From NCBI GenBank assembly GCA_039799965.1, contig JBDLRS010000111.1:60394-124393 (forward strand): DNA of 64,000 bases, in the 5' to 3' direction. Each line of letters begins with the position of its first letter. The first letter of the stretch is position 1. The position numbers and the translations under genes are program-made. Of the stretch, positions 25,001 to 59,109 are shown piece by piece. A model generated the notes under the pieces. It was not told the DNA's origin. It did not search any database and saw nothing but the letters and a program-made list of their open reading frames with translations. This DNA comes from Pseudomonadota bacterium (lineage in GTDB: Bacteria; Bdellovibrionota_C; UBA2361; OMII01).

Positions 25001-25400
25001 TCCGCACCAGAGAGAGGTCGAGCGGTAAGCGGGATTCTGTTCAGAGTCCTTGTGGGACCGTGTGATCATTCATCTCGGCTTACCGTTGCCGATAAGCTCT
25101 AGCGACGCTACCCGAAGGCTCGTCGCGGGTCGCGACGTTCCACGTTGCCGTAAAAAGCCTTCCTATTCGGTCTTGCTTCAGCTGGGGTTTACCAAGCCAC
25201 GGAGTCACCCCCGTGCTGGTGAGCTCTTACCTCACCGTTTCACCGTATCCTACCCTCTCAGGTAGGTCGTCTTCTTTTCTGTGGCACTTTCCGCCGATCA
25301 CTCGGCGCCGCCGTTAACGGCCAACTTACCCTATGAAGTCCCGACTTTCCTCTCAGGTGTTACCCCAAGCGATCACGCACTCAACCTCTCTCTGCTGGGG
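25001..25400 (-). ncRNA. rnpB: RNase P RNA (bacterial type A)
   Basis: On the minus strand: 'GAGGAAAGTCGGGAC' (rc of 25338-25352) and 'ACAGAATCCCGCTTACCG' (rc of 25023-25040) are the two P4 strands. 'GGTGAAACGGTG' is present. P1 pairs rc(25380-25398) with rc(25005-25022). Confidence 0.9.
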
Positions 25401-26159: not shown

Positions 26160-26327
26160 GTGACCTCTATCACGGGGGTGGTCCCTTGATACTATGAGTA
26201 AAGAACCCATAGTATCAATTACCAAGATGACTTAGGGGAGAGAAAGGACGCAGAATATACCCAAGATTCAGACGTAAGGGTTGCACGCCCCGAGGGTTAA
26301 GTTGTACAACAGCATTCTCTTTCGTAT

Positions 26328-26360
26328 GGCCCTATAGCTCAGTTGGTTAGAGCGGCCGGC
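26328..26360 (+). pseudogene. orphan duplicate of the 5' 33 nt of the downstream tRNA(CAU) gene
   Basis: 26328-26360 is identical to 26452-26484 (acceptor 5' strand, D-arm, 5' anticodon stem). No matching 3' half follows. Confidence 0.8.
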
Positions 26361-26451: not shown

Positions 26452-26528
<77 letters not shown>

Positions 26529-26622
26529 ATTAGTTCGCGGAGTTGCCCGCTCCTTACAAACTCGGCGATGGAGGAATGTTCCAAAAATGTTCCATCCCAT
26601 CGCCATTCGTAAGGAGATTTAC

Positions 26623-27714
26623 ATGGCGAGCTACAGAAAGCGGAAGAACAAGGACGGTACCTTTAGTCATCAGTTCAGGATTCGAAGAAAGGGGTATCCA
26701 TTGGTCACGAAGACCTTCGAGCGGAAGACCGACGGCGAGGCCTGGGTACAAGAGACCGAGACATCCATGCGAGCCGGAAAGTTCAACTTCGACTCCTTCT
26801 CCTCCGAGATAACCGTAGCCGAGCTGATTACTCTCTACGTCAGCTCTCCCGACTTCCAGAAGCGAAAGTCCAAGCACTCACCTATCCAGACTCTTGACTG
26901 GTGGAAGCAGAAACTCGGGGCCCTCCCAGTGAAGAACCTGTGCCGCCCCGTCATTAAGAGGCAGTGGATGGAGCTTGAAAGAACCCCATCAGCGAGAACC
27001 GGGAGGCCACTAACTAACCGCACCTTGAACTCGTATCTTGAGACGTTCTCTGCCTGCCTCTCCCATGCTGTAGCGGAAGAGTTACTCGACGAGAACCCAG
27101 TGCTCAAGATACGGCGTAGACCGCTGGATAACGCTCGCGAGCGCGTCCTGTCGTCCGATGAGCTAAGACGTCTTCTCGATGCCGCCTCCCAATCCTCGAA
27201 CCGCTACCTGAAGACAGCAATACTGATGAGCCTTTCCACTGGAGGACGTCGAGGCGAAGTCATGGGCCTAACGTGGAGCGACGTAAGCCTCGAAACGGGA
27301 GAAGTAAGGTTCCGCCTAACCAAGTCGGGGAAACGCCGCGTGGTCGTTCTCGGAAGCTCCGCTCTTCAAGCTTTGCGCGAACACTCGAAGCTTCGCTCTC
27401 TGACCAGTCCGCTCATTTTTCCGCCTCTCAAGGTACGACGTATGGGAACGAAACACGTCCCCTGGGAAGACCTTAAGGCGCCCTTTTATCGGGCGTGTAA
27501 GCAGGCGGGGATCAGTGACTTTCGCTGGCACGACCTCCGCCACAGCGCCGCATCTTTCCTCATCATGTCGGGAGCGACTATTGAGGAGGCGATGAAGGTT
27601 CTCGGCCATCAAAGTGCGGCGATGTCGTGGCGCTACGCGCATCTCGACACCAGAAGAAACGCCGAGCTGGCGAGTCGCGTGGACGATAACTTCTTGGCCC
27701 AAGCTGTAGCGTAA
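26623..27714 (+). CDS. int: tyrosine-type integrase
   Basis: ORF 26587..27714. ATG 26623 lies 7 nt after AAGGAG. Catalytic signature 'GGRRGEV', 'HDLRHSAASF', 'LGHQSAAMSWRYAH'. Confidence 0.9.
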   Translation: MASYRKRKNKDGTFSHQFRIRRKGYPLVTKTFERKTDGEAWVQETETSMRAGKFNFDSFSSEITVAELITLYVSSPDFQKRKSKHSPIQTLDWWKQKLGALPVKNLCRPVIKRQWMELERTPSARTGRPLTNRTLNSYLETFSACLSHAVAEELLDENPVLKIRRRPLDNARERVLSSDELRRLLDAASQSSNRYLKTAILMSLSTGGRRGEVMGLTWSDVSLETGEVRFRLTKSGKRRVVVLGSSALQALREHSKLRSLTSPLIFPPLKVRRMGTKHVPWEDLKAPFYRACKQAGISDFRWHDLRHSAASFLIMSGATIEEAMKVLGHQSAAMSWRYAHLDTRRNAELASRVDDNFLAQAVA

Positions 27715-27718
27715 TTGT

Positions 27719-28669
27719 ATGAACTTCGCTGATGACCTCGACCGCTATGAAACCATAAAAGAGGTCATCAGCGATCAGCTCTATCGAAAGCGAATTTTTT
27801 CCAGCAACCTTCTCGGCCCGACCCTTCCGCTCACGGAAATGACCTCTGATCCGACCAACCAATTTATTCGGGCGGTCGAGGACTTCTTGATCAACGATGT
27901 CACCTGGATACTATTCCGACAATGCCGCGAGCTTCTAGTTGGTGACAAAGCTCCGACAGGTGTCATTCTCGCGGCGTGCCGCGATATTCTGATCAACTTA
28001 TCCCCAAGCAAAAAGAAGGACCTTGCTAGAAGATCCTATGATCCAGAGCACAGTTTTGACGAGGAGACCGAGGGCGACTCCGACAAGCTGATCAAAAGCC
28101 ACCGTTACTCGCGCCTTATTCGTGCGATTGAGAACCAACAAGAACTGCCCAAGGTTGACTCCAACGGATTTCCCCACATCGCCCTACCCGAGCAACTTAG
28201 GACAGGAGCAACTGTTTACGAACTTGCAGAGTTTGAGTTTGATTGTTGGCTGCTCTCTGCTTTACCGTCGGCGATCGACCACCTTCCCAAACTCGATTAT
28301 TTTAGCCACGGGAAACTACGACCAGGAGAAGCCTCCAGCGCCATAAACCAACTATTAAGCGAGGCACGTCGCCCTCTCGCAGATACCGTAAAGGAGAGCC
28401 TTTCAGCGGTCAAAGTGGTCTCGAAGCGCAGCCCTTCGCAAAGAAATAAAAACAACAAAGCGGCCTGGGAGAAGATCTTCAAGGCCTATGACAAAAACAA
28501 AAGCGGCCAGAAACCCCAGTCCGCACGGTTGTTTTATCGACGCGTGGCAGTTCCAATAATCGAAGATTGCGGGGCGCAGCTATCCGAGGCAACGGTGTGC
28601 AATCGCCTGGCAGAACGAGAAACGAAGAAGAGAAGACAGTTTACTCCTAAGCAGAGTAAACGCAGGTAG
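27719..28669 (+). CDS. island hypothetical protein (316 aa, Lys/Arg-rich C-terminus)
   Basis: Long ORF starting 4 nt after the int stop. No recognisable motif. An 8-bp perfect hairpin at 28704-28723 follows it. Confidence 0.55.
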   Translation: MNFADDLDRYETIKEVISDQLYRKRIFSSNLLGPTLPLTEMTSDPTNQFIRAVEDFLINDVTWILFRQCRELLVGDKAPTGVILAACRDILINLSPSKKKDLARRSYDPEHSFDEETEGDSDKLIKSHRYSRLIRAIENQQELPKVDSNGFPHIALPEQLRTGATVYELAEFEFDCWLLSALPSAIDHLPKLDYFSHGKLRPGEASSAINQLLSEARRPLADTVKESLSAVKVVSKRSPSQRNKNNKAAWEKIFKAYDKNKSGQKPQSARLFYRRVAVPIIEDCGAQLSEATVCNRLAERETKKRRQFTPKQSKRR

Positions 28670-28896
28670 CCCCCACCTCTCGCCCCATAATTCTACTGTG
28701 ATCTAGGGCTCCTATGAGCCCTATAAAAATACCTATTACTCACGTCTCGGAGTAAATCGACGACCGCCTAGCTTCGTGATGATCCTACCCCCCATCGAGG
28801 AGCGGGCAACTCCCCGTGCGTTCTCCGATGGGCTAGCGACTACCTCGTTATCCGTGCGGAGGACGCCATTTTCTCTTCATTACGTCGAGGAGCGTT

Positions 28897-29142
28897 ATGA
28901 ACCACCAGCGAAACTATCTGAGTTTTAACCAAGTAATTGAGTTGTACCCAATCTCACGCGGAGCACTGCGGCGATATCTTTTGAACCGGGAGCAGAACGG
29001 GCTCGCGTCCGCAATCATAAGACCCCGGCGAAAGCTGATCATTCATCGGAAGCGATTTGAAGCTTGGCTCGAATCGTTCTCGGAACGGACTTGCAGCACG
29101 ACCCAAACGGTGAACAAATCTTCCAAGGGGGGCAAGCGATGA
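28897..29142 (+). CDS. small HTH DNA-binding protein (AlpA/excisionase-like)
   Basis: 81-aa ORF. 'LSFNQVIELYPISRGALRRYL......RKLIIHRKRFEAWL' fits the Xis/AlpA-type winged-HTH pattern. Its stop overlaps the next start (ATGA at 29139-29142). Confidence 0.55.
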   Translation: MNHQRNYLSFNQVIELYPISRGALRRYLLNREQNGLASAIIRPRRKLIIHRKRFEAWLESFSERTCSTTQTVNKSSKGGKR

Positions 29143-30212
29143 GCAAAACACGACGCCTCCAGTTACAATACGAAGAACGGCTAAGGCTTCTCCCGGTCCC
29201 AGGATACGGAAGAGGCTTTCATCAGCAGATTCTCGGAGTAGCAAACCTCGCGAGAAATCTTCGCCTTCCTCCTAGCAGGGTGTTTGCGGACATTAGCCGA
29301 GTGGCGAATCAGGCCGAAGGACTCGCCTCCCGCAACATTGAAGCCGAAATATGTCAGGCGATCGACAAGGCCTACGGGTTCGAGGTTCCCGGCACGCGGA
29401 CAGTTCCAGGCGTACACAGAGCGACAGCAGCGAAGCTTGCCCGACCCAACAGGCCCAAAGCACGAGCGGCAACAGTTGGTGTCGATCCTGAGGAACAAGC
29501 GGCTCGGAGAGCCGAGATTCACCAGGGAAAGGTGGTGTCTGAAGAACTTTTAGCGGCGTTGTCGCCGGTGTCAGTACCGGCACCCGGGGGGACCATCAAT
29601 GAGCAGGCACTGACCCTGTTTGCGGAGATCTTCAAACCCGACGACCACGTATTCATCGGATGCGATCGAGATTCCTACTCACCGTTCACGGTGCTGCAGC
29701 TGACTCGCGCATTCCGCAAGAAACCAAACGTAGCGAACCGCTTTCCTTTCGTCATTCCGAATGTGCTGACGGGTAGCGTCGGTGAGACCAAAAACGGAAG
29801 GCAATCCTATCGAGCCGACAGCTGTGTCGAGCATGCCCACATCATGTGTGTGGAGTTCGACGGAGTGTCGCTGGCAGAACAGCGGTCATTCTTCGCCTGC
29901 GTGTCTCTACCAATCGTTGCGTTGATCTACTCCGGATCGAAAAGCATTCACGCATGGGTGGACCTCAAACGGGCCGGTCGAAGCCAACGGGGGTTGACCT
30001 ATCTCGAATGGGAGGAGGTCGTGACGAACGGCTACAAGCCACTGCTGGTTGCTTTTGGAGCGGATCCGCAAACCTTTAACCGTAGTCGGCTATCGCGGCT
30101 GCCTGGTCACTTCCGCTATGAGAAAGGTCAGTATCAGCGGTTGCTTTATCTCGACCCGAAACCCAATGGTGCTCCCATTATCTTACGAACGAACGGAGGC
30201 TCTCATGTGTAG
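29139..30212 (+). CDS. primase-like replication protein (AEP/RepB'-like, tentative)
   Basis: ORF 29064..30212; ATG 29139 is coupled to the upstream stop. 'IMCVEFDGVS', 'YSGSKSIHAWVDL' and 'NRSRLSRLPGHF' resemble AEP-type primase motifs I/II and the R-x-PG motif. Confidence 0.45.
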   Translation: MSKTRRLQLQYEERLRLLPVPGYGRGFHQQILGVANLARNLRLPPSRVFADISRVANQAEGLASRNIEAEICQAIDKAYGFEVPGTRTVPGVHRATAAKLARPNRPKARAATVGVDPEEQAARRAEIHQGKVVSEELLAALSPVSVPAPGGTINEQALTLFAEIFKPDDHVFIGCDRDSYSPFTVLQLTRAFRKKPNVANRFPFVIPNVLTGSVGETKNGRQSYRADSCVEHAHIMCVEFDGVSLAEQRSFFACVSLPIVALIYSGSKSIHAWVDLKRAGRSQRGLTYLEWEEVVTNGYKPLLVAFGADPQTFNRSRLSRLPGHFRYEKGQYQRLLYLDPKPNGAPIILRTNGGSHV

Positions 30213-31338
30213 CAACAAACTTAGAGCAACAGCAACGACACAAGAACAACTTGAGGAGATGGACGCCGCTTTTCGTCAGGAAGAGAGCAGCGATTTACCT
30301 CCAGCGGTCCCTCTGTCCGAATTTCTATCAGGCCACTTCGAGCCAGATGTTCCTGCGGTGACCGGTCTCTTCGATCTCGGGCGAAAGGTAATGATCGTAG
30401 GCAAGGCAAAACTGGGTAAGACCCACTTCGCCCTATCGCTTGCGCTTCGCCTAGCCGAAGGCCGGGACCTATGTGAGCTGAAGATACCCTCTTCACTACG
30501 GGTGCTCTACATCAACTACGAGCTACACCGGAACGCCCTAAGGAAGAGGTTGGACGCCCTAATGGCGACTGAGTGGCTCGACCGTTCCGGTCCGGTAGCG
30601 AGGCAAGTAACCTTTCTCAACCTACGAGGGTATTCGTATCCGCCCGATACTATAGTCGAGCATATTATCGATCAGGCCAACCAGCATCAAAGTCAGGTCA
30701 TCATATTGGACCCGCTTTATCTGCTCGTAGACGGTAATGAAAATGATAGCGAAGCAATCCTCGCATTGGTTAAGTCTATCGACCGAATCATTCGAGATAC
30801 GCAGGCCGCGTTCATTTACGTACACCACGATATCAAAGGCACTTATCCTGGAGAACGCTTGAACGTGGACAGAGGGAGTGGCTCTGGATTGCTGGGTCGG
30901 CACTGGGATGCCCAGATAGCTTTGACAGAACATGCAGAGTCGGAACGAGCCGTGGTCTTTGAATTTGGCAGTCGGGAGTATGCCCCTCCCCCGCCGATGA
31001 CAATGGAGAGGACGAACGGCTGTCTCGTGTGCTCTTCCCTTACGCCTTTTAAGCGTACAAAAAATAGCGACCGACGAAACGAGCCAACGAGGGAGGAGAA
31101 AGCTGAGATGATTCGAGAAGCAGCCAGCTACGCCGCGGAACTCATCACCCTCATGGATAAGGCGAAAACTACGGAAGTGAAGAACTTCCTGCAAGGCCGG
31201 TATCCTGCGATCGGGGAGCGCGGAGCCCGTCGGCTGACGTATCAGCTGGACGGAGTTGAAGTGCGACCACAAACAAAACTCAGGTTAATTCGAACGAAGA
31301 ACAACCACGACCACTTTGTAACGGACTCGCCCCCTTAA
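30205..31338 (+). CDS. RecA-fold P-loop ATPase (AAA_25/RepA-helicase-like)
   Basis: ORF 30049..31338. ATG 30205 follows GGAGGC and overlaps the upstream stop by 8 nt. Walker A 'GKAKLGKT'. Walker B 'VIILDPLYLL'. Confidence 0.7.
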   Translation: MCSNKLRATATTQEQLEEMDAAFRQEESSDLPPAVPLSEFLSGHFEPDVPAVTGLFDLGRKVMIVGKAKLGKTHFALSLALRLAEGRDLCELKIPSSLRVLYINYELHRNALRKRLDALMATEWLDRSGPVARQVTFLNLRGYSYPPDTIVEHIIDQANQHQSQVIILDPLYLLVDGNENDSEAILALVKSIDRIIRDTQAAFIYVHHDIKGTYPGERLNVDRGSGSGLLGRHWDAQIALTEHAESERAVVFEFGSREYAPPPPMTMERTNGCLVCSSLTPFKRTKNSDRRNEPTREEKAEMIREAASYAAELITLMDKAKTTEVKNFLQGRYPAIGERGARRLTYQLDGVEVRPQTKLRLIRTKNNHDHFVTDSPP

Positions 31339-31750
31339 TCGCCAACCTGGTCGTGTGTCGCATGCCGCATTACAAGTGTGCCGCACGCCCAGATCCACCT
31401 CTCCTGTATGCACACTCCTCTTTAGGAGTGTGCGACAGAGAGAGCATACGCGATCCACCGGTAATAATGGCCCAAAAATGAGTCACTCGGCGGAGGGGCG
31501 GAGGAGGGCCGAAGGCTACATGTCAGACACACTAAATAGCGTGCGATGCCGGAGTTCTCTGGTGTCAAACATCGCGTAGACGGAGGGCACTCATGCCGTC
31601 TCAACACGCAGTTACGGGATATCTTGAGAAGCTAGCTAAATGCGAAGCCTAACACAGGCAACGACACCCACAGATTCAGAGGTCGAGAGGGTACCCCCTT
31701 CGCATAAACCGTCGAGAGCGCCCGGCGGCCCGACACTATTGGTAACGCGG

Positions 31751-32386
31751 TTACCTTCCGTGAGCTGTCGCAGAGCAGCGCCATCCCTTAATACGAGACG
31801 CCTTCGGAATGTAGTCCGGAGCAGTAGCGAGCACTTGAGCAACGTGCTCCCCTGCTGTAGCGTTACACTGGGCAACCGAAGAGAGCGCCTTGATAAAGAC
31901 AGAATATTCGTTTACGTCCTGGGGATTATCCAACTCTAACGTCAAGTGCACCCCCTCCACCTTGGCGTATTGCGTCCTTCCCTCCCACCACCAAAGGGCA
32001 TAGGCGGAAGTCCCCATGAGGACAAGCTCAACAAGTAGACACAGGATCACCCAAAACTTGACTATACTATCAACCTTTCCCCCTGCCTGCCGAGAAGCTT
32101 CCTTGAGCGTACTGGTAAAGAGAAGGCTCACCACCGTGATACCTAGAATCACCCACCAAAGCCCGGGAAGTGGTGTCAGCCAGAGCGAATAAAGAGCGCT
32201 CAACGAAAGAACAGATGCCAACAGCCCCGAGCCAGGAAACATAGCCCCTCCCAAATAACTCCAATTCGTTAGGGCACCCGCGAATGTCGTTTTACGGGGT
32301 CCCTGCCAATTGTTTGCTAACCGTATCCGAATATAGCAAACTATCCGGAAAAGGATAGCTGGTTTAACTACCTTCTTCCTCCTCAT
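31751..32386 (-). CDS. hypothetical 3-TM membrane protein
   Basis: ORF 31751..32425. Three hydrophobic segments ('GLLASVLSLSALYSLWL', 'LWWVILGITVVSLLF', 'FWVILCLLVELVLMGTSAYALWWW') precede a soluble C-terminus. Start ambiguous (32386 or 32242). Confidence 0.5.
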   Translation of the reverse strand: MRRKKVVKPAILFRIVCYIRIRLANNWQGPRKTTFAGALTNWSYLGGAMFPGSGLLASVLSLSALYSLWLTPLPGLWWVILGITVVSLLFTSTLKEASRQAGGKVDSIVKFWVILCLLVELVLMGTSAYALWWWEGRTQYAKVEGVHLTLELDNPQDVNEYSVFIKALSSVAQCNATAGEHVAQVLATAPDYIPKASRIKGWRCSATAHGR

Positions 32387-32597
32387 GAGGAAGTTGCCGG
32401 GTAAATTGGAGCGCACGTTTGCCAAGAGGCTGAAAGAGCTTCGGGGGGAAACGTCTCAGCTTCAGTTTTCAAAGCGACTCCAGATTGCTCAATCGACGCT
32501 TAATCGCCTTGAGAATCTTGAGCAGAGCGCCAGCTTGCATATCGTGGAACGTATCGCCGAACGATTAAAGGTTCCGGTCGAGAAGTTGTTGTTTTAG
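32385..32597 (+). CDS. XRE-family HTH transcriptional regulator
   Basis: 70-aa ORF. 'FAKRLKELRGETSQLQFSKRLQIAQSTLNRLENLEQS' is a classic Cro/C1-type HTH. Confidence 0.75.
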   Translation: MRKLPGKLERTFAKRLKELRGETSQLQFSKRLQIAQSTLNRLENLEQSASLHIVERIAERLKVPVEKLLF

Positions 32598-32614
32598 CGC
32601 GCTTGGAGGACTCC

Positions 32615-33262
32615 ATGAGATTCGCAATAGCTTTGTCGCTATTAGCCACCATTACTTTGTTTGCTCGCCCTGCCCATGCAGCTCCGGCCCGCGTACCTAC
32701 GCTCAAGCTTTGTTTAGGTCCGGGCGGCACCATCAATATCCGGCAGAGATGCACCAAGACAGAGACCACGGCCAATTTGGCCGGACTTCGTCCGGTATCG
32801 GTGAAGGGTGACCAAGGAGCACAAGGGCCACAGGGCCCCCAAGGTGCACCTGGCCTAATGGGTCCGATCGGACCGCAGGGTCCCGAAGGCGCACCCGGAG
32901 CACCGGGCCTGATGGGGCCGCAAGGGCTTCAAGGAGCAACTGGCGTTCAGGGGGCAAAGGGTGATTCCGGCCTGAATGGGGCGGACGGATTGAACGGCGT
33001 TTTTGACACCTCTCTGTGTTACTCTCGAACCACATCGTCTAGTAGCTCCTTCAGCGCCACCGCTAGTTGTTTGAATCCCTCGGGGGAGTTCATGCTGAAT
33101 TGGGGCATCGAGCCAAGTTTTACATTCAGCTCCGAGCTCGTTCTGAACCGAGCAGAGATTCAGCGGACCGGAAACACGCCCACTGGAATCAATGTTCGGA
33201 TGATGACTCTCGACGGGTCGGTGGAGTATTTCACAGTCAGAATTATCTGCTGCCCCGGCTAA
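32615..33262 (+). CDS. secreted collagen-like triple-helix-repeat protein
   Basis: ORF 32603..33262. ATG 32615 follows GGAGGA. Signal peptide 'MRFAIALSLLATITLFARPAHA'. 21 uninterrupted G-X-Y triplets (32807-32995). About 90-aa Cys-containing C-terminal domain. Confidence 0.8.
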   Translation: MRFAIALSLLATITLFARPAHAAPARVPTLKLCLGPGGTINIRQRCTKTETTANLAGLRPVSVKGDQGAQGPQGPQGAPGLMGPIGPQGPEGAPGAPGLMGPQGLQGATGVQGAKGDSGLNGADGLNGVFDTSLCYSRTTSSSSSFSATASCLNPSGEFMLNWGIEPSFTFSSELVLNRAEIQRTGNTPTGINVRMMTLDGSVEYFTVRIICCPG

Positions 33263-33380
33263 ACCTCAGAGGGTCTGGCACTACCGGGCGCTCCCTCACA
33301 ACCGTCCTGTCACCCCGGGCAGGGCTAATGGGAAACAGATTGAGGGAATAGGCTATACCCTGGCCGAAACGGAACAAGAC

Positions 33381-33426
33381 AAAAAAAATCCTGCCTATCT
33401 CAGAGGTCAACCTAGCCTTCGGCAGG
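33381..33426 (-). terminator. possible intrinsic terminator for the minus-strand island transcript
   Basis: On the minus strand: CCTGCC (rc 33421-33426), a 25-nt loop, GGCAGG (rc 33390-33395), then A + T8 (rc 33381-33389). It lies just downstream of the 109-aa ORF. The long loop weakens the call. Confidence 0.35.
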
Positions 33427-33433
33427 CCTTATC

Positions 33434-33763
33434 TTACTTCTTTCGTCCGATGACATTTCCCATCACATCGAACTCCAGTGAAGAAATGTCAATGTCCTCC
33501 GTAACCGGCGCTTGCATCTTCTCCACGGCATTCAAGGCCGTCGTCAAGGCCAGTAAACCACCTCCCAGCCGTTGCAAAGAAACTGCGTCATCCGGCGATG
33601 CAGTGCGAATGGCCCGATTCAGCAATCGTTGAAAACTCGCTGCCGATGAGGCCAACTTCTCGGCGCTTCCCTTCAGATCCTTTGCTGCCATGACAAGCTC
33701 CTTTGCTCTCCGCCGAAATAGAAAGCGCATCCCTTTATTCAGTGATCCTTTTGGACGTGCCAT
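33434..33763 (-). CDS. hypothetical small helical protein (109 aa)
   Basis: ATG-initiated ORF downstream of the giant gene on the same strand. Basic N-terminus 'ARPKGSLNKG'. No SD. Followed by the candidate terminator. Confidence 0.4.
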   Translation of the reverse strand: MARPKGSLNKGMRFLFRRRAKELVMAAKDLKGSAEKLASSAASFQRLLNRAIRTASPDDAVSLQRLGGGLLALTTALNAVEKMQAPVTEDIDISSLEFDVMGNVIGRKK

Positions 33764-34368
33764 TGAGCTGCATAATATCGCAATTTAACACTACTAGAGA
33801 ACAACCTTTCTTACCGGTTTTCATGCCTAGTATCGTCATCTGGACAAAAGATAGCGTTCCCAAGCTGTATCAAATCGTCACCACAGGTGCGGGCGATTGC
33901 AACAAATCCCATCAGTGCGGAAATCGGGGGACATTTCATCTCGATAAAGAGGAACTGAAGGCCACCTTAAAGTCTTGCGTTGACGTCCGATAATTCCTCC
34001 CGCTACATCGCAGTCGAGGCTTTCAATATCGGGAGCATCATTATCGTCGGGCTGCGAAGGCTTTCCGTTGATACGGCGAGCCCAGCTCATAACCGGTGCG
34101 GGCTCACCGTCTCGTCCGCAGGCGCAGAACGAATAGCCTTTTCCAATCACTTTCGATAATTTTTCGCTGCACTATTAAGCTATACCACTCCAGTGGTCGT
34201 TATTGTCCATGTCATAAGTTTGTCTCGCGCTCTCCTCGTTATCAAAAAGCGGTGGTCCTTATTGACGGATCCGATCGGTCGCCCCATACTCGTCGCACTG
34301 CGCCATAGTCCCCACCTAAGGTGCTCTACATTATCCGCCTGCCAAGGCAGAGACGGCGTGACGTCAAC

Positions 34369-37300
34369 CTACCGCAAGCCTTCTCGAAAGCCCGTCATTG
34401 TCGCCCACCGTTCAATCGCCCGCCGCATAGAGTTCTGTCGACCGAAATTCGCCAAAGGTAGGGCATCACAGGCCTTCGACAGTGTGCCATATACCCACGC
34501 CTTATTCCTACTTCGAGTTGCCGCCTCCAACGCGTCGTCTGCCAGCTTCATGCGCTGATTGAAATCTATGAATCTGCCAAATAAGTCAAAAAGGAAGCCC
34601 GCAATGACAGGTATGCCGGAATCGTAAGTAGTAGGCTCATCAAGCATCGAACACGTTTGACGAAACGCAAAGGAAGATGTCCAGCCCGACCTCTCGGCTA
34701 GTTCGAGAAGGACATTTTTATCAACACGAACGTAGAAATAGTTGAGCGAGCAAAGCGTTGCGCGACCAGAAACTAACTCTTCATCTGACAGCACGCCCTT
34801 GTCGCGACCGTAAAGCATCAGAGCCTCTGACCATACCGTCTTAACGCCGAGCGCGTTTGCCCCCTGGGCTCGCGTGCACAGGTCATCCGTGTACAGAACG
34901 GCTTTATGTCTCTTACTGATTAAAATAGCTTCGGCTGCACATCGTCCGAGTCGCTGCTCCAGTTGCTGTCGAAAATTTCTGTCCATCTCAAGATATTCGT
35001 CACAAGGCACGACAGAACAGTGCTCCCGCAACCAGCTTAGCCCCTCCACCAGGAATTCAGCATCGAAGGCAATTGATTCTTTTGTCACCTGATGCCAGAC
35101 CGTTTCCTCGCCGACCTTACTCATGATCGCGTATCCGGCCGCCTTGGGGCCCCGCCTTACAAAAATCATGCTCTCTATCTCATCAATGACCGACTGCGGC
35201 ACTATTGGCTGAGAGCACAGGGACATTAGTGAACGGCGTGCCTCTGGAACTGCCTGCAACGCCATCGCGGATGAAAGATCGAGGACAACCTTCCCGCTAA
35301 TGCGAATGTTTTCACGCCCTGAACTTATCTCTTCGTCCGTTCCATCGGAGCAAAGAATCCGTCTATCCGCAGCTGTACCGAAGCATCGCCACACGTCGTA
35401 GTAGTCCGCCGTCGAAGCTTCGGAAAGCTGCTCCAAAGTGATTTGAACGGCTGCATACGCCACTTCAAGTTTAATTCCCACATTCCTCCTTTCTAGGAGG
35501 TCTGCTTCGATTTCTTTACGAACTTCCTCGGGGTCCGAAGACTTAATAGCCTCTACTGCGATTGTCGGGAGGCATTCTCGGTAGCAGAGTACATACTTCG
35601 ATATGACCTCTCGCACTGTGAACCTTTCGGTAACGAACCGATTAGGCGCCTCAACCACATCCTCCTTCTTGCAGCCAATTACGCGGTGGAAGAACGGATC
35701 GTCCAGCGAGATTTCATTCTTCTCCTCCGCTGGATGAGGCCCTGATTCGACGATTAGCCACCGACGACCTCCGTCCGTCCCTTCAATCAAGAATGCAGAG
35801 TCGGCACCAATTCTGTCGACGTCTAGCCAAGGAATACTTCCATCCTTTGGGATATTGAAAAATGTAGCGGCGTAGAGTCTATCGAGCTCGACTGCACTCC
35901 GATATCGCCGCGCATTATAGACAACGATTAGGGCACCTATCGGTCTACGCCTTGCGAGATACAGTCGTGACGTCAAGGCAACATCTGATGAATCCAAAGT
36001 TTGAGCATCGATCTTCGAGTCTAAGAAACTATCCACAGCATCAACTCGACCTTGGCGAAGATGTGTGAATGCCAATCGAATCTCCAACGATTGCCTGTGC
36101 TCGGTTTGCTCTAAACACTCCTCGTAGCAATTAGCAGCCGCGAGCAGATCATGTACCTCGGTAAAAATTGATGCGAGCAGCGAATTATAAAAGACAGGGT
36201 TTTTAGAATTCTTCAATACAGATTCACATAGCGTCCGGGCACGACCGAGATTTCCTGCTTGATACAATAGGCAGGCTGCTCGACGCGTGAGGACTCCGTC
36301 TTCGGACAAATTGCTAACCTGTTCTAGCAGTCGCACTCCTTCCATGGGTAAGTCCAGATTTGCATACTCCTCCGTCATCTGCAGGATTCTCTTTACGGAC
36401 GGGGCCTTGGTTTCAAGGGTCTGTAGTACGGACTGAGCCTTCTTCCTATCTCCTTTTAAACGTGACAATTGGGCCGAAAGAAGTAAATTGTCGACATCAT
36501 CTCCAGCAACTTGCATGAGGCGCTTCATGATTCTCTCGGCGGATCGAAGTCGCCCGTGCTCAGCTTGGTGCGAAAACACCATGCGAAGAGCCGCTACCCG
36601 AACAGAATCTTCTGCGTGGCGAAGTAGTTGCTTAACGGCGTCTCGATAAACCTTCTTGTTGGAGAGGTGGTGCGCAACGTCCCCTAACAAGATCAACAGT
36701 TCAAAGTCGCTTGGCGCAGAGATTGTAGAGAAATGCTCAAGAGCTTTTTTTAGATTGCCCCTCTCAATTTCGAGCAGGCCTGCCGCCTTGCGTATCTGCT
36801 CACCACCCGTTTTCTGTTCAAGGTATGCATCGGTTTTGTCATAGGCGTACTGCCGTCGGTCCCTAGCGAGTGAAAGCCTGGACGCAAAGATAATGTTTAC
36901 CAGAACAGGCTCAAATTGGTCGGCGTAGGGAGTGTCCCCCACAATGTTCCAAGCAGTAGTAAGCAGCTCCCAAGATTCATCTATCAAACGTTTCGTCTTT
37001 TCAGCGGCGATACCGAAAATAATTTGCTCATGCTCACGCGCTGCGAGGCGCAACAGAACTTCACCAAGTTGCACACCCAACTTAATTCCGACGGAGGATG
37101 AGTGAGTTCTCGATTCCTCGAAACATTTGCGTGCTAATTCAAGCTCACCGGACTCTTTAGCTCTACAACCGAGCGCATAGCATACCTCTTCTGACTGTCG
37201 AAGCCGAGTTGGGATCTGAGCAAGAACCTCGTCCATCGGTACGTTCGGACCGGTAGCCGCAATTAGGCACGCGTATGCGGCGGCACTATCAGGCTCCTTG

Positions 37301-38670
37301 GCAATGGCCGCCCTCGCGTACGTTTCAGCCTGTGCGAGGTCCTCTCTAAGTATGTATGCGTAAGAGGCATTGCAGAGGGCCTTGACATTATCGGGTTGAA
37401 ATCGGAGAGCCTCCAGCAAATGAGTAGTAGCGTGTGGGAAATTCCCTTCAAGTTCAAACGCTGCTCCGTAATTCGTGTGCCATCGAAAGCGCAGAGTCGA
37501 GTTGTTCGTAGTAGCGACTAACTCTCTAATCTCATCCAGCAAACCCTTTGCCTCCTTCGGGTTCAAGGCTTCAAGTCGTTCCTTTGCTTTGCTGATAATC
37601 GCGCTCAGTTGTTGGGTCGCTTCGTCGAGAAACGTCCAACTTACCGTTTCCACCTGCAAAACCATTCCGGTTTGTAAGGTTGGGGTCGTTAGGACCCCGG
37701 GCTGCGATTTTAGGAAATAGCTGGAGACCTGATATCGGCTATCGGATATTGGCTTAAGCCCAACAAATTCTTCCCTGGACGGATCAGCCTGTTCGACAGT
37801 CTTTAAAGGCTCAAAGGTTCGGCGTGCTAGGACGGAATGAATCCCCTCTTGTAGTAGATCCTCCATTCTTGCGCGATCAAAGCGTTTGATTTCGTATAGC
37901 CAATGCGTTGTGCGATTTTTTGCGTCAGGAACGAAGATAGAGAACTCCTGTCGACCGTGACGAATGGTAGCATCAATCGCTTCTCGAAATGGAATCAGCA
38001 GGTGCTCGGCTAGGAGCTCGATTTCATCTATGCTAAGTCGCCGCTCTTTAACCTTAGGCAGCACCTTGAGTTGGTTGACCGTTTCGTACTTCTCATAGTC
38101 GAGCGCCGGCCCTTGATGTAGATGAAACTTGCTAAGCAGAAGAATTAAGTTGGCACTCGTATATGAGGAGAATTGGGGATCCTCTCTGAATTCTTTAACT
38201 GTTTCATCTACCCAGAGGGATACTGAGTCAGGTAACGCTGCTCCGATCTTAAGATGCTCATGGCAGCTGGTCAGAATATAGGAGAGGTTCGTTGCGGTTT
38301 TACTCTCTTCGTAAAACCCAAGGCTTGATAAAAGCCCGAAACGCTGAAATTGCCCTGGCAATTGCAAGTCAGAAAGAGCCGAATTTTTGATGGTCTTTTT
38401 GACCTTCGGAGAATTGGCCTTGAGTGGAGGTTTGCCGGGCTTGCCAGACGCCACCTGGATCAGTCCTATCCAGTCCTCTTTGTAGCTTTGTACCAAAATG
38501 TCATCGTGTAGTTCACAGTAAACCTGAGCATATTCGGGCGCATCACCGAGCGTCCGAAGAGCGTACTGTAAGGCGATATGAGCCTGATAAGTGTACCTGC
38601 TTGACGTGTCCGAGCCCGCTTCACAACGGGGCGCATGCTTCTGATGTGTAATTCCGGTCTTGTCACCCAC
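34369..38670 (-). CDS. 1433-aa multidomain protein: Cap4/DUF4297-like nuclease N-terminus + TPR array + GreA/B-C-like domain + PIN-like C-terminus
   Basis: Domain motifs read from the translation. N-terminus aa ~20-80: 'RYTYQAHIALQYAL..YCELHDDILV..LIQVASGK'. TPR-like helices aa ~395-900. aa ~950-1026: 'EISLDDPFFHRVIGCKKEDVVEAP..FTVREV' (GreA C-domain-like). aa ~1126-1285: 'VVLDLSS', 'VIDEIE', 'VLYTDDLCTRA' (PIN-like). Confidence 0.75.
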   Translation of the reverse strand: MGDKTGITHQKHAPRCEAGSDTSSRYTYQAHIALQYALRTLGDAPEYAQVYCELHDDILVQSYKEDWIGLIQVASGKPGKPPLKANSPKVKKTIKNSALSDLQLPGQFQRFGLLSSLGFYEESKTATNLSYILTSCHEHLKIGAALPDSVSLWVDETVKEFREDPQFSSYTSANLILLLSKFHLHQGPALDYEKYETVNQLKVLPKVKERRLSIDEIELLAEHLLIPFREAIDATIRHGRQEFSIFVPDAKNRTTHWLYEIKRFDRARMEDLLQEGIHSVLARRTFEPLKTVEQADPSREEFVGLKPISDSRYQVSSYFLKSQPGVLTTPTLQTGMVLQVETVSWTFLDEATQQLSAIISKAKERLEALNPKEAKGLLDEIRELVATTNNSTLRFRWHTNYGAAFELEGNFPHATTHLLEALRFQPDNVKALCNASYAYILREDLAQAETYARAAIAKEPDSAAAYACLIAATGPNVPMDEVLAQIPTRLRQSEEVCYALGCRAKESGELELARKCFEESRTHSSSVGIKLGVQLGEVLLRLAAREHEQIIFGIAAEKTKRLIDESWELLTTAWNIVGDTPYADQFEPVLVNIIFASRLSLARDRRQYAYDKTDAYLEQKTGGEQIRKAAGLLEIERGNLKKALEHFSTISAPSDFELLILLGDVAHHLSNKKVYRDAVKQLLRHAEDSVRVAALRMVFSHQAEHGRLRSAERIMKRLMQVAGDDVDNLLLSAQLSRLKGDRKKAQSVLQTLETKAPSVKRILQMTEEYANLDLPMEGVRLLEQVSNLSEDGVLTRRAACLLYQAGNLGRARTLCESVLKNSKNPVFYNSLLASIFTEVHDLLAAANCYEECLEQTEHRQSLEIRLAFTHLRQGRVDAVDSFLDSKIDAQTLDSSDVALTSRLYLARRRPIGALIVVYNARRYRSAVELDRLYAATFFNIPKDGSIPWLDVDRIGADSAFLIEGTDGGRRWLIVESGPHPAEEKNEISLDDPFFHRVIGCKKEDVVEAPNRFVTERFTVREVISKYVLCYRECLPTIAVEAIKSSDPEEVRKEIEADLLERRNVGIKLEVAYAAVQITLEQLSEASTADYYDVWRCFGTAADRRILCSDGTDEEISSGRENIRISGKVVLDLSSAMALQAVPEARRSLMSLCSQPIVPQSVIDEIESMIFVRRGPKAAGYAIMSKVGEETVWHQVTKESIAFDAEFLVEGLSWLREHCSVVPCDEYLEMDRNFRQQLEQRLGRCAAEAILISKRHKAVLYTDDLCTRAQGANALGVKTVWSEALMLYGRDKGVLSDEELVSGRATLCSLNYFYVRVDKNVLLELAERSGWTSSFAFRQTCSMLDEPTTYDSGIPVIAGFLFDLFGRFIDFNQRMKLADDALEAATRSRNKAWVYGTLSKACDALPLANFGRQNSMRRAIERWATMTGFREGLR

Positions 38671-39108
38671 CCTAAAACCTTCTCCAATCCCTAATCTTCT
38701 GATCGCCCTGTTGGCGATCCGTGGTAATACTCTAGCTCAACTGTGGTTGGCCTAGAACTACAAAGGCACTTGTACAACAGTACCTGTATAACGAAAGGGA
38801 ATCCGCGCGTTTAGTGTACCCGGGAGATCGGGGGGGGAGGGCATTTGGAGCGGGGCAGAATCCCGCCTGCGACAAGGGATTCCTTTTTATGCCCAATAAT
38901 GCCGTCGTCGTTGAAATCTTGTTGACCTCTGGCCGGTACGATGATCATCCGAACTCTCTACGAATCTAAGCTTTAGCTGCAGTTCGTGTCCCACTTTGTT
39001 CCAATCTTGATGAACATTCGTGGTTAACACTGAGCACTCCCGAGCAACTAAATCATTGAATGTTCTGCTCAGTAATGCTACCAACAGCTCAGGAGCGAGC
39101 ACTTTCAG

Positions 39109-39153
39109 CGGCTCATAACCGGTAGGTCCCTGGTTCAAGTCCAGGTGGGGCCA
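39109..39153 (+). repeat. attR core (copy of the tRNA 3' 45 nt)
   Basis: Identical to 26481-26525. Identity stops on both sides (39108 g vs c; 39154 t vs c). Confidence 0.85.
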
Positions 39154-39199
39154 TTCCCTTTTCTCCGAGTAATACAAGAAACCCACCTGGACTTGAACC
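39132..39199. repeat. 18-bp perfect inverted repeat built from the tRNA T-arm sequence
   Basis: 39132-39149 'GGTTCAAGTCCAGGTGGG' and 39182-39199 'CCCACCTGGACTTGAACC' are exact reverse complements, separated by a 32-nt spacer. Confidence 0.8.
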
Positions 39200-39244: not shown

Positions 39245-39264
39245 AGTCCAGGTGGGGCCATTCC
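39245..39264 (+). repeat. second copy of the 20-nt attR-junction sequence
   Basis: 'AGTCCAGGTGGGGCCATTCC' at 39245-39264 equals 39138-39157. This includes 4 nt (TTCC) beyond the tRNA identity. Confidence 0.75.
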
Positions 39265-39361
39265 TTTGACGCTGCCGTAGGTGATGCGAGGCTTTTCAGC
39301 GACCGAGGACGGTCGCCCTCCCGTTATCGCGAGTTCGAACCAGCGAGCCCGCGACAATCGC

Positions 39362-40132
39362 CTAATTAAACCTCGCCCTCGGTGCGGCGCCTTTTACGAA
39401 ATTCAAAACCGAGGCTGCTTGAAGGTTTGTGTTATCACTTGCTCCCCCACTGACTCGGCACGCCGATGGCCCCGCGCGAACGATCGCCACGATGCCAGGC
39501 TGTCCATTATTTCCATCCAAGAGGAGAGCCCCGCCGGAGTCCCCCTGACACGTATCACCACTTCCGTCACTCAGCGAGTCTACTGAAAAGTCAGACACTC
39601 CGATTACTTCGAGTGTCGTGGCTTTGAGTGGGGCTTCACCACTTTCGATCCGGCTCACAAAGGTTTCGTCGTTCTGATCGAGACCAAATCCGTAGGTCAC
39701 CACACTATCCCCTGTCGCCACACCTCGTGAGGTGTTAATCGGAACGGGATTTACCGGCGCGTTCTGACCGATCGTCACAATAGCGACATCATTTTGATCA
39801 GAGGGAACGTACGGATTGAAACTGGGATGAACCTGCACCCGAGTTGAGCTGTACGAAAAATACTGCGATAGGATCGTCGCTGAGGTTCTACCATCCGCGA
39901 AGCAATGACCGGCGGTGAGGACCTGATTAGCGGTGATAAAGGTTCCGCTGCAGTATCCAGCCGAGGTACCAACAACCACTATCTGGTTCGGCCCGTCTGA
40001 ACATTCGGCCCCTCCGGCGATCTTTAACGTAGAGCATATACTTGAGTCGGTGTCGGAGCCGCCCCCTCCTCCACATCCCATACCAACAATCGAAACCGCG
40101 ATCATACAGATGAGTGAAAGCTTCACACGCAT
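39362..40132 (-). CDS. trypsin-like (S1) serine protease lipoprotein
   Basis: 256-aa ORF. Lipobox 'VGMGC' followed by a Gly run. Catalytic triad contexts 'LTAGHC', 'NDVAIV', 'CQGDSGGAL'. Confidence 0.9.
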   Translation of the reverse strand: MRVKLSLICMIAVSIVGMGCGGGGGSDTDSSICSTLKIAGGAECSDGPNQIVVVGTSAGYCSGTFITANQVLTAGHCFADGRTSATILSQYFSYSSTRVQVHPSFNPYVPSDQNDVAIVTIGQNAPVNPVPINTSRGVATGDSVVTYGFGLDQNDETFVSRIESGEAPLKATTLEVIGVSDFSVDSLSDGSGDTCQGDSGGALLLDGNNGQPGIVAIVRAGPSACRVSGGASDNTNLQAASVLNFVKGAAPRARFN

Positions 40133-41537: not shown

Positions 41538-41564
41538 CGGGAGAGCGTGTTCTGCAGCCCCTAG

Positions 41565-41600
41565 CACAAATCTTGGCGCAGCCAAGTTTGTGTAGGAAAA
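41565..41600 (+). repeat. 36-bp hairpin repeat, copy 1
   Basis: 'CACAAATCTTGGCGCAGCCAAGTTTGTGTAGGAAAA' is identical to 41693-41728. It is internally self-complementary (CACAAATCTTGGC / GCCAAGTTTGTG). Confidence 0.8.
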
Positions 41601-41692
41601 CGGTTCGCGTAGGAAAAGAACCGCGCCAGAGATGAACCCAGGGAGTCCTAACCTAGGGGGGGTCCCTAGGGGCAGCAGCCCCTAGGCCGTCA

Positions 41693-41728
41693 CACAAATC
41701 TTGGCGCAGCCAAGTTTGTGTAGGAAAA
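41693..41728 (+). repeat. 36-bp hairpin repeat, copy 2
   Basis: Identical to 41565-41600. Both copies are preceded by GCAGCCCCTAG. Confidence 0.8.
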
Positions 41729-58079: not shown

Positions 58080-59096
58080 ATGACCAAGGATGTCGCGGAC
58101 CTCTTCGCGGAAGCCCGCCCCGACAAAAAAGTAGCTACACTTCCCCTCGGCTCTATCGTGACCGAGTACCTTAGGTTTTACGCCGAGGGCCGAGGCCATA
58201 CCGCAAGAGCTAAACAGCTTGACACGGATAAGTTCCTTGAGTTCTTAAAACGCTTCAAACGCAAAAAGGAGATAGACGACCTCTCGGTTGAGGATTGGGA
58301 CCTCTCCTCGACACAACGCTTCATTGACGAGGCCCTACGGGTTGGCGAGGCGCCCGCGACCGTCTCAAGACGGCTTGCAACTCTTAAACACATGGGGCGG
58401 GTTCTCTCAGAGCGGATCCCCGGATTTGTGAACCCAGCTCGTGATGTGAAGCCACCCCGACTTCAGACCCGCCGACCAAAATCTATCAATGCCCATGAGG
58501 TTGCAGAGGTCAAAGCCAAGGCGGCTTCAGCGCGAAGCGAAAAGAACTCCTTTAATCGGTTGCGCAATGAGACCCTGCTCAAGCTGCTCCTCGATACCGG
58601 ACTCCGCGCCGAAGAGATCCGAACGATCAAGATGAATCAATTGAGCGACAAACTTGACTGGATTCGACAGGTGCGAACGAAGGGACGAAATTTCAGAGAT
58701 GTCTACATCACCTCCGAGATGCGGGCGCCCCTCCAAGTCTACCTCAATCAGCGCGCGCATGAGTTAGCTCGTTTTTTCCCTAAGATGAGCGCCTCGGTCG
58801 ACGCGACCCTTCCCCTCTTTATCAGCTCTTATGGAGCCTCGGCGAGCGACCTGCAAAGTTTTGAGTTGAGCCCAAAGAGTGTCTGGCGCGCGATCCGCTC
58901 CTTCTCCGTTGACACCAAGCTTCACCCGCATCTTCTCCGGCACACCTACGCCACCAACCTCTTGAACGATTCCCGAGATATTCGATTGGTCGCTCAAGCG
59001 CTTGGCCACAGTGATGTCCGGGTCACCATGCGTTACACTGAGCGTGGAAACGAGGAGGTCGCGGAGGCGTTAGAGAGGGTACGCAAGAATAAATGA
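58080..59096 (+). CDS. tyrosine site-specific recombinase (XerC/D-like or integrase)
   Basis: 'DTGLRAEEI', 'HLLRHTYATNLL', 'LGHSDVRVTMRYT'. Confidence 0.85.
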   Translation: MTKDVADLFAEARPDKKVATLPLGSIVTEYLRFYAEGRGHTARAKQLDTDKFLEFLKRFKRKKEIDDLSVEDWDLSSTQRFIDEALRVGEAPATVSRRLATLKHMGRVLSERIPGFVNPARDVKPPRLQTRRPKSINAHEVAEVKAKAASARSEKNSFNRLRNETLLKLLLDTGLRAEEIRTIKMNQLSDKLDWIRQVRTKGRNFRDVYITSEMRAPLQVYLNQRAHELARFFPKMSASVDATLPLFISSYGASASDLQSFELSPKSVWRAIRSFSVDTKLHPHLLRHTYATNLLNDSRDIRLVAQALGHSDVRVTMRYTERGNEEVAEALERVRKNK

Positions 59097-59109
59097 ATGT
59101 CGCGAGCAG

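Follow-up and report, generated by a model that had tools for sequence, protein, structure and literature searches.

The locus raises the question of what one very long gene does on a small genomic island, and whether its domain layout is new. Within the window (the whole analysed stretch of 64,000 nucleotides), the gene is the largest open reading frame, as the preliminary description had stated:

34369..38670, reverse strand: whole gene, encoding a 1433-aa Cap4-TPR-GreAB-C-PIN (TGP-family) protein, read from a GTG at 38670 to a stop codon at 34369–34371

The 4.3-kb reading frame was fully open, and an SD-like GGAGAAGG lies 8–15 nt upstream of the GTG. Public gene calls place a TTG start at 38496, which gives 1375 aa; however, the Cap4/LmuA homology starts already at aa ~15 of the longer protein. 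We consider it rather probable that the gene encodes a stand-alone TGP anti-phage or anti-mobile-element protein, carried as cargo by an island with an integrase and a primase/helicase in a tRNA-Met gene.

Profiles, predicted structures and relatives verified the four domains that had been read from the translation, and a C-terminal extension was added to them:

37777..38628, reverse strand: Cap4/LmuA-like PD-(D/E)xK nuclease module (aa ~15–298, nuclease core plus helical subdomain), from PF14130, PADLOC LmuA and Foldseek
35866..37488, reverse strand: TPR/alpha-solenoid array (aa ~395–935), from Pfam TPR families, NCBIfam and the C-terminal model
35581..35844, reverse strand: GreA/GreB C-terminal-like domain (aa ~943–1030), from a profile against PDB sequences, Foldseek and PF01272 in relatives
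34801..35295, reverse strand: PIN domain of a TGP-specific family (aa ~1126–1290), from PF20698, Foldseek and an 11-sequence alignment
34372..34800, reverse strand: C-terminal all-helical extension (aa ~1291–1433), from an alignment with P0002 and P0004–P0008 and from helices in the model

The helical extension was kept in the TGP relatives of that alignment. The AF2 models were confident for aa 1–400 (pLDDT 79) and aa 881–1433 (pLDDT 83). A pattern scan and Pfam searches of the protein found no P-loop, Walker A pattern or NTPase match, in agreement with the earlier remark that it is not an NTPase, and a STAND/Avs NTPase sensor was ruled out on these grounds.

The PIN domain matched the Pfam family PF20698, 'PIN-TPR-GreABC', at aa 1129–1268 (E 1.1e-16; 61.8 bits, cut-off 27.8), a family named after the TGP system. 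The C-terminal AF2 model gave Foldseek matches to VapC/PIN structures (5h4g, 1ye5, 5ecw, and 1y82) with TM(target) values of 0.56–0.65, and the acidic residues D1131, E1164, E1247, D1262, and D1263 were intact, as judged from conservation in the 11-sequence alignment. The PIN-like motifs noticed at first thus belong to a recognizable PIN domain. A VapBC toxin-antitoxin system was ruled out, as the PIN lies within the 1433-aa protein and the small ORFs flanking the gene had no family matches.

Several Pfam TPR families (TPR_2, TPR_19, TPR_14, and others) matched between aa ~400 and 880, as the early reading of a TPR array implied. NCBIfam TPR-protein matches were also obtained, and the last TPR-like helices were visible at the start of the C-terminal AF2 model. 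The array is presumed to be a sensor or scaffold. In the same model, the helices preceding the GreA/B-C domain belong to this array. PF01272 was below the Pfam threshold on the 1433-aa protein alone, and it was present at the aligned position in relatives P0007, P0008, and P0117. A profile (A4) made from this segment of the protein and 10 relatives was run against PDB sequences and matched E. coli GreA 1grj (E 7.9e-7), Gfh1 (8.5e-7), GreB (1.8e-3), and Rnk (3.5e-3); the matches to Gre factors were confined to their C-terminal domain (residues ~81–156). The top 14 Foldseek matches for aa 881–1433 were all from the Gre family (GreA, GreB, Gfh1, and Rnk; prob 1.00), with alignments that run over ~150 Gre-chain columns, but at an rmsd of 12–18 A. 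Both searches support the GreA/B-C-like domain proposed earlier, and by analogy with the Gre factors it is predicted to be an RNA-polymerase docking module. A Gre transcript-cleavage factor was ruled out, given the absence of the antiparallel N-terminal coiled coil with its acidic tip and a length of 1433 aa against ~160 aa.

This order of domains is already known. The TGP (TPR-GreA/B-C-PIN) conflict system was defined by Kaur, Iyer, Burroughs and Aravind (Kaur et al., 2021; eLife 10:e70394; PMC8195603). Their source table holds ~1400 proteins, ~517 of them REase-fused; about one third of the members are labelled REase+TPR+GreAB-C+PIN, the commonest fused architecture in the catalogue (PMC8195603). 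The N-terminal effector or adaptor varies (REase, HNH, TIR, SIR2, PNPase, EAD10, and others), and the genes are mostly stand-alone, lack conserved neighbours and occur in mobile or defence settings (PMC8195603). In the 1433-aa protein, a long TPR array, a GreA/B-C domain between TPR and PIN, and a C-terminal PF20698 PIN follow an N-terminal effector of the variable type, here with a Cap4/LmuA-type REase fold, and the gene stands alone on its island. Judged by sequence, it is a new, very divergent member of this already catalogued family of single-gene bacterial anti-phage candidates. The hint in the preliminary description that the Cap4 fusion was new did not hold, since the architecture had been published and Cap4-type fusions recur in no fewer than three further clusters of proteins (P0013, P0048, and P0117, with exactly the Cap4+TPR+GreAB-C+PIN layout). 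In several further relatives, a short Mrr_cat_2-like REase takes the place of Cap4.

The genes of the TGP relatives sit in unrelated contexts: P0048 has AbiEii, HEPN-Toprim, VapC, and AbiTii genes as neighbours, a clear defence island, and P0013 adjoins a serine recombinase. The protein shares at most ~25% identity with any relative found. A search of 185,579 species-representative genomes did not recover it, and only one sequence variant occurs in public data. About 10 distant relatives were recovered, and how far the C-terminal half is conserved was estimated from this small set. No automated tool calls the gene a defence system, because PADLOC v2 has no model for TGP.

At the N-terminus, the Cap4/DUF4297-like character suspected earlier was confirmed. 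PF14130 matched at aa 18–131 (E 3.7e-12; 47.3 bits, cut-off 26.2), and the PADLOC LmuA profile PDLC03848 matched at aa 17–252. The top Foldseek matches of the aa 1–400 model were Cap4 (6vm5 and 6wam; E 6e-7 for 6vm5), HamA (8zue), and LmuA (9hr5 and 9nxx). At E<=1e-3 the module matched 179 representative clusters, for the most part LmuA-like proteins of ~420 aa aligning to aa ~15–290, with a best E of 3e-21 for the N-terminal ~300 aa, and the short proteins closest to it are genuine LmuA effectors of Lamassu. A CBASS Cap4 effector was ruled out, since the protein had no SAVED match and the island no cyclase gene; Lamassu (LmuA-LmuB-LmuC) was likewise ruled out, since no SMC or AAA_23 gene lies nearby. 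Relative P0011, unlike the 1433-aa gene, has an adjacent SMC/AAA_23-type gene.

The sole unusual trait of the protein, as far as the alignments indicate, is a nuclease domain without its catalytic lysine:

38449..38451, reverse strand: codon GCG, Ala74, at the catalytic Lys position of the D...QxK motif, from the alignment with relatives

The 'QVA' first read in place of the Q-x-K lysine was correct, as position 74 is Lys in 41/41 aligned relatives, and among the 42 aligned Cap4/LmuA sequences the lysine is missing solely here. The GCG codon was the same in three independent metagenome contigs. A complete E...D...Q-x-K motif was not found in the protein: E53, D57, and Q72 of the Cap4 active site are kept, and the Lys is absent. 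T75S, F97S, and N116S also deviate, at positions 93–100% conserved in the aligned relatives. In LmuA, K57A abolishes Lamassu defence and is catalytically dead (PMC12663957); from its position in the motif, we infer that K57 is equivalent to position 74. DNA cleavage by the Cap4 module is probably lost or strongly weakened, because the Lys at position 74 has become Ala and three other nearly invariant positions differ as well.

The loss of this lysine could signal a gene that is decaying rather than functional. The locus may then hold an inactive relic, a once functional Cap4-TGP gene whose effector was disabled (K74A, F97S, N116S), which now protects little or not at all, and which persists only because the island is young. 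The concentration of these near-invariant losses in this one sequence favours such a relic, and with a single public variant, purifying selection cannot be demonstrated. However, the frame is open over its full length, the metal-binding E53, D57, and Q72 are kept, as is every acidic residue of the PIN, and the AF2 models of both halves are confident. We regard decay as unlikely.

The preliminary description placed the gene on a tRNA-integrated island; this is substantiated by the direct repeats, the integrase and a related MAG in which the site is empty:

26481..26525, forward strand: attL, a 45-nt direct repeat (exact) equal to the 3′ part of tRNA-Met (gene 26452–26528)
26587..27714, forward strand: island tyrosine integrase (PF00589, E 4.5e-29; phrog_1 integrase, E 1.7e-58)
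29301..31338, forward strand: island replication module of two genes, one primase-like and one for an AAA_25 primase/helicase (PF13481; phrog_2597 DNA primase, E 6e-12 and 3.7e-38)
39109..39153, forward strand: attR, the identical 45-nt repeat (exact), closing the 12.6-kb island

In the related MAG (locus L004), tRNA-Met is followed directly by the trypsin-like and YchF genes. The island is mobile. It also codes for an HTH regulator and a collagen-like tail-fibre-type protein, and no defence-type neighbours of the 1433-aa gene were found on it.

Together with the integrase and the primase/helicase, these two genes form a satellite-like set, and PIN domains are classic toxin modules. The PIN and Cap4 domains might thus serve the island rather than host immunity, as a maintenance (addiction) factor or in satellite-versus-helper interference; killing cells that lose the island or manipulating helper-phage transcription would be examples. 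Yet no antitoxin-like partner or conserved neighbour of the gene was found, other TGP members stand alone in varied, non-satellite contexts (including those in PMC8195603), and the sole tested TGP is a phage defence (bioRxiv 10.1101/2024.11.07.622273), so we hold this explanation to be improbable. A Gre-like housekeeping factor for transcription or RNA quality control, rescuing or clearing stalled RNA polymerase during normal growth, would fit the GreA/B-C fold, with which Gre factors, Gfh1, and Rnk dock on RNAP, but is very hard to reconcile with a gene that is missing in the nearest relative (empty tRNA-Met site), lies within a mobile island, is extremely divergent and was not found in the species-representative genomes, and whose product, which has no Gre coiled-coil finger, contains two fused nuclease domains of a kind typical for conflict systems.

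For the anti-phage TGP protein that we prefer, the function is inferred from what is known of the family. A self-contained sensor-effector that docks on RNA polymerase, as the preliminary description suggested, is a hypothesis already published for TGP (Kaur et al., 2021; PMC8195603), for which experiments on Agp provide partial support (bioRxiv 10.1101/2024.11.07.622273). The GreA/B-C domain would dock on the beta′ rim helices at the secondary channel of the polymerase, as Gre factors do. The TPR array would sense or transmit an infection-dependent change in the transcription machinery, probably via the oligomeric state, and the PIN domain would then cut RNA on the polymerase or close to it. 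The N-terminal Cap4 DNase of canonical relatives would act as a second, cell-killing (abortive infection) effector, activated by oligomerisation like Cap4 and LmuA. In the present copy, PIN may be left as the working nuclease because Cap4 DNA cleavage is probably lost or strongly weakened; the Cap4 module would serve as a scaffold that binds DNA or oligomerises.

Within the family, experimental evidence exists for Agp alone: together with its partner Bab, this TGP forms the Bab/Agp abortive-infection system of E. coli ECOR25 and protects E. coli from phage T5 (bioRxiv 10.1101/2024.11.07.622273). Resistance is lost with S628L or L634P in GreA/B-C and with D762N in PIN (bioRxiv 10.1101/2024.11.07.622273). 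The RNase role of PIN is put forward as a hypothesis, because Bab/Agp gave no effector-independent (PIN-only) protection and the PIN mutant was unstable (bioRxiv 10.1101/2024.11.07.622273). By domain description, Agp and the 1433-aa protein have the TPR-GreA/B-C-PIN core in common. However, Agp signals via an N-terminal amyloid motif to Bab, a separate membrane-targeting effector, and the 1433-aa protein has neither amyloid motif nor partner gene; in their place, a Cap4-like nuclease is fused to it.

Other known systems share single modules with the protein. It contains the C-terminal globular domain of the RNA-polymerase secondary-channel factors GreA, GreB, Gfh1, and Rnk, as profile and fold matches indicate. 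The N-terminal coiled coil, the finger with which Gre factors reach the active site, is missing here, and the domain is embedded in a multidomain protein of 1433 aa that a mobile island encodes. VapC-type toxins have the same PIN fold and conserved acidic residues, but they are small and adjoin an antitoxin gene, whereas this PIN is one domain of a large protein without a VapB-like gene and belongs to a separate Pfam family confined to the TGP context. LmuA (Lamassu) and Cap4 (CBASS) resemble the N-terminal ~300 aa in sequence and fold, including the active-site acidic and Gln residues. In contrast to them, the protein lacks the LmuB/LmuC (SMC) partners, the SAVED domain, the LmuA C-terminal domain and the catalytic Lys, and its Cap4-like domain is joined to a TGP sensor. 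With the TGP proteins it has in common an identical order of the C-terminal core (TPR array, GreA/B-C, PF20698-type PIN, and helical tail), the variable N-terminal REase-fold effector and a stand-alone gene on mobile DNA. It stands apart by its great divergence, by a long Cap4/LmuA-type REase (~300 aa, PF14130) where several relatives have the short type, and by the alanine in place of the nuclease lysine.

The reading frame at 34369-38670 on the reverse strand was open for 1433 codons and was by far the largest in the region, as the preliminary description had stated. In Pfam, the Cap4_nuclease family (PF14130) matched aa 18-131 (E 3.7e-12), several TPR families matched between aa 400 and 880, and PF20698, the 'PIN domain associated with the TPR-GreAB-C-PIN system', matched aa 1129-1268 (E 1.1e-16); the nuclease and PIN matches were both above the curated cut-offs. 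PADLOC recognised the N-terminus alone, as LmuA-like (LmuA is the Cap4-nuclease effector of Lamassu), and NCBIfam returned generic TPR similarity only. The Walker A motif was absent and no NTPase match was found in the protein, in agreement with the earlier reading. All four segments recognised by eye (nuclease, TPR, Gre-like and PIN) were borne out by profiles and models, and it is almost certain that the protein belongs to the TPR-GreA/B-C-PIN (TGP) family. The first interpretation of the protein was essentially right.

The Gre-like segment was examined with a profile, built from an alignment of aa ~943-1030 and the corresponding part of ten relatives and searched against all PDB sequences. 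The profile matched the RNAP-binding factors E. coli GreA (1grj, E 7.9e-7), Gfh1 (8.5e-7), GreB (1.8e-3) and Rnk (3.5e-3), in each case confined to the C-terminal domain. The AlphaFold2 model of aa 881-1433 had a mean pLDDT of 83, and its top 14 Foldseek matches in the PDB were Gre-family proteins (GreA, GreB, Gfh1 and Rnk). VapC-type PIN domains came next, at target TM-scores of 0.56-0.65. The Pfam GreA_GreB model was below threshold on the protein alone, and PF01272 was found at the aligned position in three relatives (P0007, P0008 and P0117). The PDB profile matches, the Foldseek results and PF01272 in these relatives together indicated that the alignment with GreA made by eye was correct.

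In public gene calls the protein (P0001, 1375 aa) starts at TTG 38496, corresponding to residue 59 of the frame. That start drops 58 residues with the first nuclease helix and strand, E53, D57 and half of the Cap4 core, which explains the lack of PF14130 in the precomputed annotation. TTG 38496 was rejected as the likely start because it is downstream of sequence homologous to Cap4/LmuA, the invariant E53 and D57 included. The homology begins at about residue 15, GGAGAAGG sits 8-15 nt upstream of GTG 38670, and no SD-like sequence was found before TTG 38496. We infer that translation starts at GTG 38670. Scans for promoters and terminators near the gene performed no better than shuffled controls.

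The AlphaFold2 model of aa 1-400 had a pLDDT of 79, with values >90 across most of aa 20-230, and Foldseek matched it with a probability of 1.00 to Cap4 (6vm5, 6wam, 6vm6), Hachiman HamA (8zue) and LmuA (9hr5, 9nxx, 9hqx). Direct sequence searches of both halves of the protein against the PDB gave nothing useful, nor did the N-terminal profile. With aa 1-395 as the query, exhaustive searching of 1.8 billion representative proteins by HMMER yielded 179 clusters at E<=1e-3. The majority were ~420-aa proteins aligned to aa ~15-290, which scored as LmuA in PADLOC; P0011, one relative that was checked, was located in a typical Lamassu operon in the order of LmuA, small ORF and AAA_23 (SMC-like). 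The same Cap4 module was fused elsewhere to SAVED, NACHT, NB-ARC+WD40, AAA+TPR and HEAT sensors, indicating that it is a portable effector.

Residue conservation in the Cap4 domain was assessed in two alignments, with 11 and with 41 relatives. E53, D57 and Q72 were invariant in both. The lysine of the Q-x-K motif, whose loss had been suspected from the translation, was indeed present in every aligned relative and replaced by Ala74 in this protein, which also departed at three more near-invariant positions (T75S, F97S and N116S). The GCG codon of Ala74 was the same in three independent metagenome contigs, and thus it was no assembly error. In V. cholerae Lamassu, the Cap4-domain lysine mutant K57A serves as a catalytically dead control (PMC12663957). 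K57 of LmuA would correspond to position 74 according to the invariant QxK motif and the strand position in the model, which were used in place of a residue-level alignment because the PDB searches gave no usable LmuA alignment. The Cap4 domain of this protein is more probably dead than active. By contrast, none of the five acidic residues conserved in the PIN domain (D1131, E1164, E1247, D1262 and D1263) had been lost.

The preliminary description had implied that the Cap4 fusion was new, and this did not hold. Cap4_nuclease, TPR and PIN-TPR-GreABC were found in the same layout in P0013 (1465 aa), P0048 (1411 aa) and P0117 (1390 aa), among the best 150 N-terminal clusters; P0117 additionally carried PF01272, and the catalytic lysine was kept in all three. 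In locus L085 (1-7842), P0048 occupied one end of a densely packed defence island with AbiEii, HEPN_Toprim_N, DUF6996/6997/7226, DUF7380, AbiTii and a pair of HTH_17 and VapC PIN genes. P0013 adjoined a large serine recombinase gene, and P0117 was surrounded by metabolic genes. Among relatives of the C-terminal core, P0003, P0006 and P0007 carried a short Mrr_cat_2-like REase and P0004 carried SIR2. Word-indexed protein searches recovered this family poorly: the full-length query gave seven matches, the C-terminal half gave one, and a profile of eight C-terminal sequences gave none. When species-representative genome contigs were scanned with the whole protein, no relative was found; tblastn found no match in phages and only two weak matches, annotated as hypothetical, in plasmids. 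The protein is a divergent member of a described family, and its architecture is not new.

The gene was carried by an island inserted at a tRNA gene. An exact 45-nt direct repeat was found as the 3' part of tRNA-Met (attL, 26481-26525) and again at the far end (attR, 39109-39153). The features concerned were as follows:

25010-25388, reverse strand, RNase P RNA of bacterial class A (276.6 bits), closely upstream of the island's insertion point at tRNA-Met
26481-39153, integrative island of 12.6 kb at tRNA-Met, with exact 45-nt direct repeats at both ends
32615-33262, forward strand, collagen triple-helix repeat gene with many phage tail-fibre PHROG matches

The island contained a tyrosine integrase, a primase-like protein, an AAA_25 primase/helicase, an HTH regulator, the collagen-repeat protein, the large gene and several ORFs without matches. 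This gene set is phage-satellite-like. The tail-fibre-like collagen gene is an odd cargo for an island with no other structural genes. PADLOC found no defence model in the other island genes, save weak matches to the HTH regulator. An identical island was present in the JGI metagenomes 3300047564, 3300043427 and 3300047510. In the nearest genome found, the MAG 'uncultured delta proteobacterium Loclat_bin-13748' (YchF 91% identical), tRNA-Met was directly followed by the trypsin-like and YchF genes. This empty site indicated that the large gene is accessory and mobile.

Three neighbouring genes were considered as partners and rejected. The two small downstream ORFs (33434-33763 and 33878-34150) had no family matches and were not found beside other TGP genes. 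A trypsin-like serine protease gene (39362-40132, reverse strand), directly outside attR, matched PADLOC protease-effector models, and 'Trypsin' is listed beside some TGP genes in the source table of Kaur et al. (PMC8195603). It was rejected on account of its position beyond attR and its presence at the relative's empty site, and is a core gene that neighbours the island coincidentally.

Several other repeats were observed. The att/tRNA 3' end recurred in part, as a 23-nt copy 107 nt past attR (39245-39267, 96% identical to 39138-39160), possibly a scar left by an integration that took place there earlier. The 5' half of tRNA-Met was repeated exactly over 34 nt (26327-26360), 124 nt upstream of the real gene. 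The same arrangement in the related MAG (L004 1214-1247) indicated that this copy is older than the island. Between ychF and tRNA-Lys, a 45-nt element occurred in two copies, 91% identical (41556-41600 and 41684-41728), containing the palindrome ACAAATCTTGGCGCAGCCAAGTTTGT; this could represent a repeated terminator or a REP-like element. At 7794-7883 (reverse strand), ARAGORN called a 'tRNA-???' of 90 nt whose anticodon had two bases, where Rfam at gathering threshold gave no tRNA, and this is probably a false call. The G+C content was 0.46 at ~59000-61000 against a window average of ~0.54, and this stretch may be another foreign segment.

The TGP system was defined in eLife in 2021 by Kaur, Iyer, Burroughs and Aravind (PMC8195603). 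Its C-terminal region is constant, evolves rapidly and combines TPR repeats with a GreA/B-C domain and a PIN domain of a new version, and the genes stand alone for the most part. Their source table holds the string TPR+GreAB-C+PIN 2835 times and REase+TPR+GreAB-C+PIN 1034 times, where the 'REase' label may or may not include the Cap4 type; at two occurrences per protein, these correspond to ~1400 TGP proteins and ~517 REase-fused ones. In their model, GreA/B-C was proposed to engage the beta' coiled coil of a virus-hijacked RNA polymerase and the PIN domain to cut the transcript, with the N-terminal effector as a fallback suicide arm (PMC8195603). In E. coli, the TGP protein Agp and its partner Bab protect against T5 by abortive infection (2024 preprint, 10.1101/2024.11.07.622273). 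Agp GreA/B-C mutations modelled on GreA-RNAP contact mutants abolished both resistance and signalling; the PIN active-site mutant lost resistance too, but the protein was unstable, and no activity of Agp independent of Bab was detected (10.1101/2024.11.07.622273). A literature search for PF20698 or the system name gave nothing beyond these two sources. The TGP proteins are widespread, and they have been studied almost wholly by computation, with a member tested in one preprint.

A defence or conflict role is likely for the protein described here. From Gre-factor biology and the published model, its GreA/B-C domain would dock on the rim of the RNAP secondary channel, the TPR array would sense infection or oligomerise on infection, and the PIN domain would cleave RNA; the docking and RNase steps are only tentative. 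Cap4 and LmuA cut DNA only in the oligomerised state, and by analogy the N-terminal domain of canonical relatives may be switched on by sensor-driven clustering. In this protein, that domain probably no longer cuts. It is conceivable, though unlikely, that the DNase arm has become a non-cutting DNA-binding or oligomerisation module and that protection comes from the GreA/B-C-guided PIN RNase alone. If so, the protein would be a natural separation-of-function variant and could serve to test the proposed 'first-line', transcript-cleaving and non-suicidal TGP arm, which was undetectable in Bab/Agp.

As a divergent family member, the protein leaves the overall TGP picture unchanged. It adds a clean example on a small, precisely delimited island with a matching empty site, and evidence that a Lamassu/CBASS-type Cap4 nuclease is among the interchangeable TGP effectors. 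It also illustrates how public gene calls can hide a domain, here Cap4, from precomputed annotation. As a natural variant with the PIN domain intact and the DNase probably dead, it is possibly a handy construct for dissecting the two proposed outputs. Its one particular feature is the lysine-less Cap4 arm beside the intact PIN: it has the same Cap4-TGP layout as P0013, P0048 and P0117, whereas it alone among them lacks the lysine.
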